Shown: piece after piece, positions 17,650 to 20,928 of the stretch | Numbering within the stretch: the first letter of the stretch is position 1 | Layout: the number at the start of each line of letters is the position of its first letter | UHGV virus genome: UHGV-0008299 | Strand: one strand, 5' to 3' | DNA length: 20,928 nt | DNA from: a virus | Notes under the pieces: generated by a model | What the model was told of the DNA's origin: nothing | The model's input: the letters and a program-made list of their open reading frames with translations, nothing else | Databases searched by the model: none | Position numbers and translations under genes: made by a program

Positions 17650-17668
17650 CAGATAACCAACGCGACAA

Positions 17669-17691
17669 CCCAGCTTCGGCTGGGTTTTTTT
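17669..17691 (+). terminator. Rho-independent terminator after ant
   Basis: cccagc-ttcg-gctggg 6-bp stem with a 4-nt loop, followed by a 7-T run. Confidence 0.7.
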
Positions 17692-17749: not shown

Positions 17750-20695
17750 ATGACAGACATTACAGCCAATGTGATCGTATCGATGCCTTCGCAACTCTTC
17801 ACTATGGCGCGTTCTTTTAAAGCCGTAGCCAATGGTAAAATTTATATCGGTAAAATTGACACTGACCCGGTAAACCCTGAAAACCAGATTCAGGTTTATG
17901 TGGAGAACGAAGACGGCTCTCACGTTCCTGTTTCGCAACCAATCATCATTAACGCCGCTGGTTATCCTGTATATAACGGACAGATTGCCAAATTCGTAAC
18001 TGAGCAAGGCCATTCTATGGCTGTTTATGATGCGTATGGTGCACAGCAGTTCTATTTTCCTAATGTGCTGAAGTATGATCCTGATCAGCTACGGCAGCAA
18101 TTAGAAGACCCAGATGGAGCGGATAAATACCCAAAACTTCAGATAGCAAGATGGAGAGACAGTTATGATCTAAGAGGTTGGGGGGCTATTGGTGATGGTG
18201 TTCATGATGACACATCAGCTCTATCAGAATTACTTTCTGTTGCAACAGGTGGTGAAAAGATAGATGGGCGAGGGCTTACTTTTAAAGTGTCAACTCTTCC
18301 GGATGTCAGTCGATTTAAAAATGCTCGTTTTTTATTTGAGAGAATACCGGGTCAGCCTCTTTTTTATGCTTCTGAAGATTTTATCCAGGGAGAGTTGTTT
18401 AAAATTACAGATACACCGTGGTACAACGCCTGGACGCAGGATAAAACGTTTGTATATGACAATGTCATCTATGCGCCTTTTATGGCTGGAGACCGCCATG
18501 GTGTAAATAACCTCCATGTTGCATGGGTTCGCTCAGGAGATGACGGGAAGACCTGGACAACGCCGGAATGGCTTACAGATTTACATGAAAACTATCCCAC
18601 AGTTAACTATCACTGCATGAGTATGGGGGTTGTCAGAAATCGCCTTTTTGCTGTAATTGAGACGCGGACCGTGAGCGGAAATAAACTGCAGGTTGCAGAG
18701 TTGTGGGATCGCCCAATGAGTCGCAGCCTTCGCGTTTATGGTGGTATAACGAAAGCAGCAAATCAGCAAGTCGCTTATATTCGCATTACTGATCACGGAT
18801 TATTTGCTGGTGATTTTGTCAACTTCTCAAACTCTGGTGTTACAGGTGTTACCGGGAATATGACGGTGACTACTGTTATTGATAAAAATACTTTTACAGT
18901 TACGACGCAAAATACCCAGGATGTGGATCAGAATAACGAGGGTAGATACTGGAGTTTTGGTACATCATTTCACTCGTCACCATGGAGAAAAACCCGTCTT
19001 GGAACTATTCCTTCTTTTGTTGACGGAAGCACTCCTGTTACTGAGATTCACAGTTTTGCGACGATTAGCGATAACAGTTTTGCTGTTGGCTACCATAATG
19101 GTGATATTGGGCCACGCGAGCTTGGGATACTCTATTTCTCTGATGCTTTCGGTTCTCCTGGTAGCTTTGTTCGCAGACGCATACCTGCAGAATATGAGGC
19201 GAATGCATCTGAGCCATGTGTAAAATATTATGATGGCATTCTGTATCTGACGACCAGGGGAACATTAAGTACTCAACCCGGTAGTTCATTACACAGAAGC
19301 TCTGATTTAGGTGCATCATGGAATTCTCTTCGCTTCCCAAATAATGTTCATCACTCAAACCTTCCTTTTGCCAAAGTTGGCGATGAGCTGATTATTTTTG
19401 GCAGTGAGCGCGCATTTGGTGAGTGGGAAGGAGGAGAACCTGATAACCGTTATGCAGGAAATTATCCAAGAACATTTATGACCAGAGTTAACGTCAATGA
19501 GTGGAGTCTGGATAATGTAGAGTGGGTTAATGTTACTGATCAGATTTATCAGGGCGGAATAGTTAACTCTGCGGTTGGTGTTGGTTCAGTTTGTATCAAA
19601 GACAACTGGCTGTACTACATTTTCGGTGGGGAAGACTTTCTAAACCCATGGAGCATAGGGGATAACAACAGAAAATATCCTTATGTTCACGATGGTCACC
19701 CGGCTGATTTGTATTGTTTCAGGGTAAAAATTAAACAGGAAGAATTTGTTTCAAGGGATTTTGTCTACGGAGCCACTCCTAACAGAACGCTTCCTACTTT
19801 TATGTCGACGTCAGGCGTGAGGACGGTTCCTGTACCCGTTGATTTCACAGATGATGTTGCCGTCCAGTCACTGACTGTCCATGCCGGTACATCAGGACAA
19901 GTTCGCGCGGAAGTCAAACTTGAGGGTAATTACGCCATTATTGCGAAGAAAGTACCGTCTGATGATGTTACCGCTCAGAGATTAATCGTTAGCGGCGGTG
20001 AAACAACGTCTTCAGCAGATGGTGCAATGATAACGTTGCATGGTTCCGGAAGCAGTACTCCACGTCGCGCGGTATATAACGCACTCGAACATCTTTTTGA
20101 GAACGGAGATGTTAAACCTTATCTTGATAATGTAAATGCTCTTGGTGGTCCGGGAAACAGGTTCTCGACAGTTTATCTTGGCTCCAACCCTGTAGTTACC
20201 AGTGACGGAACATTAAAGACAGAGCCGGTCTCTCCTGATGAAGCATTGCTGGATGCCTGGGGTGACGTCAGGTATATCGCTTATAAATGGCTGAACGCTG
20301 TCGCTATAAAGGGGGAAGAAGGGGCGAGGATACATCATGGTGTAATCGCGCAGCAACTTCGTGATGTTCTTATTTCTCACGGACTCATGGAAGAAGAAAG
20401 CACAACATGCCGCTATGCCTTTCTTTGTTATGACGATTATCCCGCAGTATATGATGACGTCATTACTGGCCAAAGGGAAATGCCGCTGACTGATAATGAC
20501 GGGAGCATCATTGTTGATGAGGATGATAATCCAGTGATGGTAATGGAAGACATCATTGAGCGCGTTGAAATAACGCCAGCAGGATCTAGATGGGGGGTCA
20601 GACCTGATCTCTTATTCTATATCGAGGCAGCATGGCAGCGCAGAGAAATAGAAAGAATAAAAGCTAGGTTAGACTTAATAGAAGGGAAGCACTAA
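17750..20695 (+). CDS. Tailspike: P22-type head-binding domain fused to a sialidase-like (endosialidase-type) receptor domain and C-terminal intramolecular chaperone domain
   Basis: 981 aa. The first ~115 residues ([11 protein letters not shown]...VLKYDPDQ) parallel the P22 gp9 head-binding domain. Downstream there are two Asp-box motifs (SGDDGKTW at 18533-18556, SSDLGASW at 19298-19321) and a C-terminal region with an S-x4-K motif (SDGTLK, 20201-20218) and ...[20 protein letters not shown]..., resembling the self-cleaving chaperone domain of K1 endosialidases. Confidence 0.8.
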
Positions 20696-20802
20696 ATGTT
20701 TCGTTGGTGTCAAAAATATGAACTGCTCACATAAAGAAGTAAGTACATTGGCAAAAAACATTGACGCCAACGAAATTAAATATAAAAATTTAAATGCTTT
20801 TT

Positions 20803-20832
20803 AATGACAAGAAAAGTAACTAGTGGTAAAAT
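20803..20832 (+). promoter_or_regulatory. Candidate sigma70 promoter for the downstream repeat-containing gene
   Basis: -35-like ATGACA/TGACAA at 20803-20809 and an extended -10 TGgTAAAAT at 20824-20832, followed by a tagga Shine-Dalgarno at 20837-20841, 7 nt before ATG 20849. Confidence 0.35.
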
Positions 20833-20848
20833 AACGTAGGATACTAAT

Positions 20849-20928
20849 ATGTCAAGACTCAAGACTCAAGACTCAAGACTCAAGACTCAAGACTCAAGAC
20901 TCAAGACTCAAGACTCAAGACTCAAGAC
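20849..20928 (+). CDS. neuO: Start of neuO-like phase-variable O-acetyltransferase gene (5' end only; continues beyond window)
   Basis: ATG at 20849, then in-frame AAGACTC heptanucleotide repeats encoding MSRLKTQDSRLKTQD... This matches the known 5' repeat tract of CUS-3 neuO. Only 80 nt lie in the window. Confidence 0.75.
   Translation, partial: MSRLKTQDSRLKTQDSRLKTQDSRLK
20852..20928. repeat. Heptanucleotide tandem repeat (AAGACTC)n, at least 10 perfect copies, truncated by the window edge
   Basis: Perfect 7-nt periodicity from 20854 to the window end (10 full units plus a partial). It lies within the 5' coding region of the ORF starting at 20849. Confidence 0.95.

Follow-up and report, generated by a model that had tools for sequence, protein, structure and literature searches.

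Does the tailspike encoded near the end of the virus genome UHGV-0008299 carry a C-terminal domain that folds the trimer and then cuts itself off, and if so, at which bond? The stretch analyzed (the window) is 20,928 nucleotides long, and the open reading frame (ORF) listed at 17750..20695 on the + strand encodes 981 amino acids followed by a TAA stop codon (20693-20695). Judged from its homology, this ORF is the siaK1-type endosialidase tailspike gene of a CUS-3-type, P22-like prophage of Escherichia coli K1. The chaperone domain family in question was defined on endosialidases; its structure was solved in 2010, and its structure and mechanism have been characterized since 2007-2010. Work on the chaperone domain of endoNF, the endosialidase of phage K1F, is reportedly that of Schwarzer in 2007 and Schulz in 2010. 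An initial annotation of the window had proposed that the end of the tailspike is a self-cleaving chaperone of the peptidase S74 type. The analysis supports this reading: residues 818-981 very probably form a C-terminal intramolecular chaperone domain (CIMCD) of peptidase S74, which would act by folding first and cleaving afterwards, between T817 and S818.

The S74 domain at the tailspike C-terminus

The CIMCD covers residues 818-981 (20201..20692, + strand), that is, 164 amino acids with a calculated mass of 18.69 kDa and an isoelectric point of 4.5, in agreement with the C-terminal piece of ~160 residues and ~18 kDa that had been anticipated. The S818...K823 pair within SDGTLK does stand at its start, and the 20-residue string quoted in the initial annotation is found at residues 864-883. 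Membership in Peptidase_S74 (PF13884) is borne out by a profile match to residues 818-878 (41.6 bits against a gathering cut-off of 22, E = 1.6e-10; 45.3 bits with the domain alone as query). Model position 1 falls on S818, and model positions 1-57/58 span the core at residues 818-878 (20201..20383, +), which includes the conserved block of K854-G, A859-R860, H862, G864 and A867-Q868. This match adjoins the stalk domain End_tail_spike, which ends at residue 817; with residue 981 as the last before the stop codon, the domain occupies the extreme C-terminal position. No NCBIfam model matches the tailspike protein or its C-terminal domain; NCBI names fragments of the 90% cluster of the tailspike 'peptidase S74'.

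The closest relative of known structure is the pre-cleavage endoNF construct carrying S911A (PDB 3GW6), with which the last 184 amino acids align at E = 7.3e-61 as far as residue 979/980. Identity is 56% over residues 818-980, and 55/82 residues are identical in the core (818-900). Remoter sequence matches in PDB are the tail spike 9VVR, the GA-1 gp12 chaperone (3GUD, E = 6e-11), a Klebsiella fibre (7Y5S, E = 1.7e-6) and the tail spike 6EU4. The PHROGs matches of the last 164 residues lie at the C-termini of a number of tailspike and tail-fibre families, among them phrog_1171 (E = 1e-75).

Conservation was followed with residues 786-981 as query. A word-indexed protein search gave a single, uninformative fragment and was replaced by an exhaustive HMMER search over cluster representatives, which found 5260 representatives at E <=1e-3 and 1821 at E <=1e-10. 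A homologue is carried by 339 phage genome records, with Escherichia, Klebsiella, Salmonella, Aeromonas, Pseudomonas, Vibrio and others as hosts. From the 5260 representatives, 145 full-coverage homologues (37-62% identity) were aligned with the query by MAFFT, giving 146 sequences. Where the domain begins, all 146 have Ser or Cys followed by Lys with the S-x4-K spacing: K823 is Lys in 146/146 (100%), and S818 is Ser in 142/146 (97%) and Cys in the other 4. The flanking T817 and D819 are conserved at 98% and 97%, respectively. Upstream, in the stalk, D793 is Asp in 141/146 (97%) and R804 is Arg in 139/146 (95%), the rest being mostly Lys. Other invariant or nearly invariant positions are K854, R860, H862, G864, Q868, C893, D895, R951, R964 and R965. 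The 4/145 homologues with Cys at the nucleophile position (…INTCDGREK…; P0016, P0030, P0031 and P0036) keep the Lys, Thr and Arg, which suggests a putative Cys-Lys variant of the S74 self-cleavage site.

Residues 698-981 were modelled as a monomer by AlphaFold2 from a 65-sequence alignment, with a mean predicted local distance difference test (pLDDT) score of 77.7. The score is 45-61 up to model residue ~120 (the stalk, 698-817) and 88-98 from ~121 (S818) to the end. The stalk is poorly modelled because an intertwined trimer is not expected to fold as a monomer, and this part was not interpreted. The confident part has a long β-hairpin, a C-terminal helix of 29 residues and, besides these, short helices and strands. 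The hairpin, or 'tentacle', lies at residues ~892-950 (20423..20599, +; model strands 195-215 and 233-253), and its part at ~901-942 (20450-20575) is very acidic and less conserved than any other stretch of the domain. The helix lies at residues 952-980 (20603..20689, +; model helix 255-283, pLDDT >=95) and contains the conserved E959, A961, R964 and R965. Foldseek against PDB returned, in this order, the chains of 3GW6 (E ~2.5e-24), 3GUD (1e-7), the stalk of mature endoNF and the MyRF ICA domain 7DC3 (2e-3), and no unrelated structure in PDB scored better than E ~0.08. The model thus shows the architecture of an S74 domain, namely an α/β core, a long hairpin tentacle and a C-terminal helix.

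Several points weigh against this assignment. The protein contains four S-x4-K motifs, with ~2.1 expected, and the motif alone is not significant; since S-x4-K by itself is unremarkable, the case rests on homology. The tentacle is also a poor match to its endoNF counterpart: two gaps in the alignment with 3GW6, one of 2 and one of 6 residues, make the tentacle 8 residues longer, and only 10/35 aligned residues (~29%) are identical within 901-943. Furthermore, both cleavage and chaperoning in this protein, as well as the exact bond that would be cut, are argued from homologues. On the other side, homology, domain boundaries, conservation of the catalytic positions and the predicted fold of residues 818-981 are direct results of the analysis, and conservation, fold and boundary agree with one another and with the alignment of S818/K823 to endoNF S911/K916.

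Predicted catalytic residues and predicted cut

The alignment with 3GW6 pairs 'VTSDGTLK' with 'VTANGERK', by which S818 (codon AGT, 20201-20203, +) falls on the Ala that replaces S911 and K823 (codon AAG, 20216-20218, +) on K916. S818 is therefore the predicted nucleophile and K823 the predicted general base. In endoNF, S911 and K916 are the catalytic dyad and R897 is a key residue of the stalk (PMC8326128); the dyad and the Arg are described likewise in PMC3742443. In the T5 fibre protein pb1, Lys1269 activates Ser1264 (PMC4690869).

The dyad would not be the whole of the site. R804 (codon AGG, 20159..20161, +), 14 residues before S818, is the predicted sensor Arg, equivalent to endoNF R897 and T5 pb1 R1250. 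D793 (codon GAT, 20126..20128, +), 25 residues before S818, corresponds to pb1 Asp1239, which lies 25 residues before the catalytic Ser and helps to position the sensor Arg (PMC4690869), and D793 would have the same role here. The spacing of Arg and Asp to Ser is the same in the three proteins (1250 and 1239 to 1264 in pb1; 897 and 886 to 911 in endoNF, 886 being our own count on the aligned sequence; 804 and 793 to 818 here). In the homologues, the sensor Arg comes from the neighbouring chain, makes the oxyanion hole and ties cleavage to correct folding of the trimer (PMC4690869, PMC8326128). By analogy, the cleavage site probably involves R804 of the neighbouring chain, D793 and T817 in addition to S818 and K823.

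The predicted scissile bond is T817|S818 (20198..20203, +). It is placed on the N-terminal side of the serine because the deposited chains of mature endoNF (1V0E, 3GVL, 3GVJ and 3GVK) all end with ...GSNPIVT, at the residue aligned with T817, and because T5 pb1 is cut between Thr1263 and Ser1264. In the mature pb1 fibre the Ser has no density, and the same is seen for K1F (PMC4690869). A cut after S818, which would leave the serine on the spike, is raised by a model for phi29 mentioned in the same paper, but those chain ends in four PDB sequence sets, together with the pb1 cut and the missing Ser density, make it very unlikely. With cleavage at T817|S818, S818 leaves with the chaperone. The precursor (calculated mass 109.3 kDa) would then yield a 90.6 kDa mature spike ending with ...GSNPVVT (residues 1-817, 90.61 kDa; 90,611 Da average, before any removal of Met1) and an 18.7 kDa fragment starting with SDGTLK. 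The cleavage site inferred in the initial annotation thus stands as far as the S818/K823 dyad is concerned, and is refined to the T817|S818 bond, with R804, D793 and T817 as further parts of the site, by the endoNF chain ends and T5 pb1.

A second Ser-Asp pair had been named there as an alternative. It exists, at S737-D738 (19958-19963), and cleavage at this position would free a fragment of ~245 residues; the dipeptide itself is the sole point in its favour. However, the residue at +5 is Ala (A742) in place of Lys, the aligned endoNF residue is Thr, and the pair lies inside the PF12219 stalk (663-817), which mature endoNF crystals retain, while the S74 profile starts elsewhere. The chance that S737-D738 is the site is practically negligible, and it was rejected.

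It may also be asked whether the domain leaves the spike at all. The protein resembles P22 in its N-terminal third, and in the P22 tailspike the auto-chaperone region at the C-terminus is retained (PMC3357383); by this precedent, the chaperone/trimerization domain would stay on the mature spike like the C-terminal fin of P22 and be present in the virion, possibly aiding receptor binding. Nevertheless, all five cleavage residues are intact and strongly conserved across the family, and the C-terminal module is of the endoNF type rather than the P22 type, for which reasons retention is highly improbable. In addition, uncleaved T5 pb1 is not competent for receptor competition (PMC4690869).

Proposed release of the chaperone and known relatives

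The fold-then-cleave mechanism is established for the homologues endoNF and T5 pb1 and is carried over to the CUS-3-type tailspike by analogy. The domain is needed for folding or trimerization in endoNF and in phi29 gp12 (PMC3357383). In the proposed scheme, the chaperone domain would bring three nascent chains into register. The C-terminal helix (952-980) is expected to form a trimeric coiled coil that nucleates trimerization, as described for homologues (PMC4690869, PMC8326128), and this coiled coil, the α/β core and the tentacles embracing the stalk would together template the intertwined triple β-helix. When the triple β-helix has reached its correct fold, D793 would hold R804 of a neighbouring chain so that it comes to lie beside the carbonyl of T817, and the hydroxyl of S818 would be activated by K823. 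The T817-S818 bond would then be cut in every chain and the chaperone trimer of 3 x 18.7 kDa would dissociate. What is left would be a kinetically stable endosialidase spike of 3 x 90.6 kDa, attached to the P22-type tail via its N-terminal head-binding domain.

The CIMCD of endoNF (3GW6) and this domain have in common the T-S-x4-K site, with Arg at -14 and Asp at -25, the location behind an endosialidase stalk and the fold, which is made up of core, tentacle and C-terminal helix. Unlike that of endoNF, the tentacle here is longer, more acidic and poorly conserved. One reading of this difference is that the tentacle masks a different or larger surface of the stalk and that its release is a CUS-3-specific switch for polysialic acid binding or processivity; another is an independent function of the 18.7 kDa trimer after its release. 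Such additional roles are unlikely. The two spikes also differ at their other end, since this one is carried on a P22-type head-binding domain and endoNF on a T7-type adaptor (PMC5380687). The chaperone domains of the L-shaped tail fibre pb1 of T5 (4UW8), gp12 of the Bacillus phage GA-1 (3GUD) and Klebsiella phage tail fibres (7Y5S), and the ICA domain of the eukaryotic MYRF (7DC3), belong to the same family and have the same Ser-Lys dyad, but their upstream domains are unrelated and their tentacles shorter. In MYRF, furthermore, catalysis does not involve the upstream stalk, and the domain remains bound to the membrane (PMC8326128).

The predicted cut has consequences for annotation and for use of the protein. 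Residues 1-817 (90.6 kDa per chain) are to be regarded as the mature virion spike. A construct for a recombinant K1-capsule depolymerase would have to keep residues 818-981 for the trimer to fold, and S818A or K823A would be predicted to yield the uncleaved pre-form.

The tailspike gene and its surroundings

At the DNA level, positions 17750-20928 of the window share 98.6% identity with phage CUS-3 (CP000711), whose host is E. coli K1 RS218. The match takes in siaK1, annotated as 'endosialidase tailspike protein', as well as the beginning of neuO, including the heptanucleotide repeats. The tailspike protein and CUS-3 SiaK1 (ABQ88383.1) are identical at 970/981 residues; none of the eleven substitutions is catalytic, and one (A832 here, T in SiaK1) lies in the 164-residue domain. 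The neighbours are also the same, with ant upstream and neuO with AAGACTC repeats downstream. Many E. coli K1 genomes carry this allele of CUS-3 siaK1, and an identical protein is already present in NCBI as MEJ3158119.1. The chaperone domain of this tailspike is therefore already known. CUS-3 SiaK1 (endoNK1) has been cloned and is an active endosialidase (GenBank note; PMC5380687, PMC3594737). The region 20105-20928 occurs in 194/5426 complete E. coli genomes and is chromosomal in every case.

Upstream of the chaperone, the tailspike starts with a P22-type Head_binding domain (PF09008; residues 1-113, 17750..18088, +; E = 1.4e-65), which would attach the spike to the tail; the same residues match the N-termini of P22/Sf6-type tailspikes in PDB with E = 1e-65 to 1e-44. 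The body of the mature endosialidase follows at residues 146-817 (18185..20200, +), ends with ...GSNPVVT and is made up of four Pfam domains: End_N_terminal (PF12218; 146-212, E = 8.8e-37), End_beta_propel (PF12217; 213-662, E = 3.9e-233), End_beta_barrel (PF12195; 324-406, E = 1.2e-46), which is inserted in the propeller, and End_tail_spike (PF12219; 663-817, E = 7.5e-78), the stalk with its triple β-helix. Mature endoNF of phage K1F (1V0E, 3GVL, 3GVJ and 3GVK) can be aligned with residues 145-817 from one end to the other, at ~1050 bits. The β-propeller, the inserted β-barrel, the stalk and this full-length alignment, all recognized by homology, assign the tailspike to the endoN family (GH58).

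The remainder of the window is a P22-like late operon encoding large terminase, P22 portal, scaffold and P22 coat, and also a gp10-type stabilization protein, an injectosome protein and the ant antirepressor. A strong terminator-like hairpin at 17667-17686, with an 8-bp stem including 5 GC pairs and a following T run, lies between the stop of ant (17649) and the start of the tailspike (17750), within the bsq1 boundary sequence of the CUS-3 record. An antisense ORF at 20213-20473 (86 amino acids), within the chaperone domain, has no Pfam match and is regarded as a side effect of the coding sequence on the other strand.

The tailspike stop and the neuO start are separated by an AT-rich spacer of 153 bp (20696-20848), in which a simple scan found no terminator-like hairpin; it contains two promoter-like sites on the + strand, at 20761-20789 and, with a TG extension, at 20804-20832. 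The ATG at 20849 is followed by 11 perfect copies of the 7-base unit TCAAGAC (register AAGACTC), an array that continues past the window end (20928), and the ORF translates as MSRLKTQDSRLKTQD... This ORF is the 5′ end of CUS-3 neuO, the gene for the phase-variable polysialic acid O-acetyltransferase. The array has 19 annotated copies in the CUS-3 record, and the copy number is not readable here, as the array is cut by the end of the window.

The endosialidase and its chaperone also occur together on a different N-terminus. An E. coli protein of 1039 amino acids (P0154) has the same module, with 96% identity from residue 134 of the tailspike onward (18149-20692 in the window). Its N-terminal ~190 residues are wholly different (MTVSTEVDHNEYTGNG...), and the last dozen or so residues differ too. 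The capsule-degrading module is therefore found on at least two virion-attachment modules in E. coli prophages.

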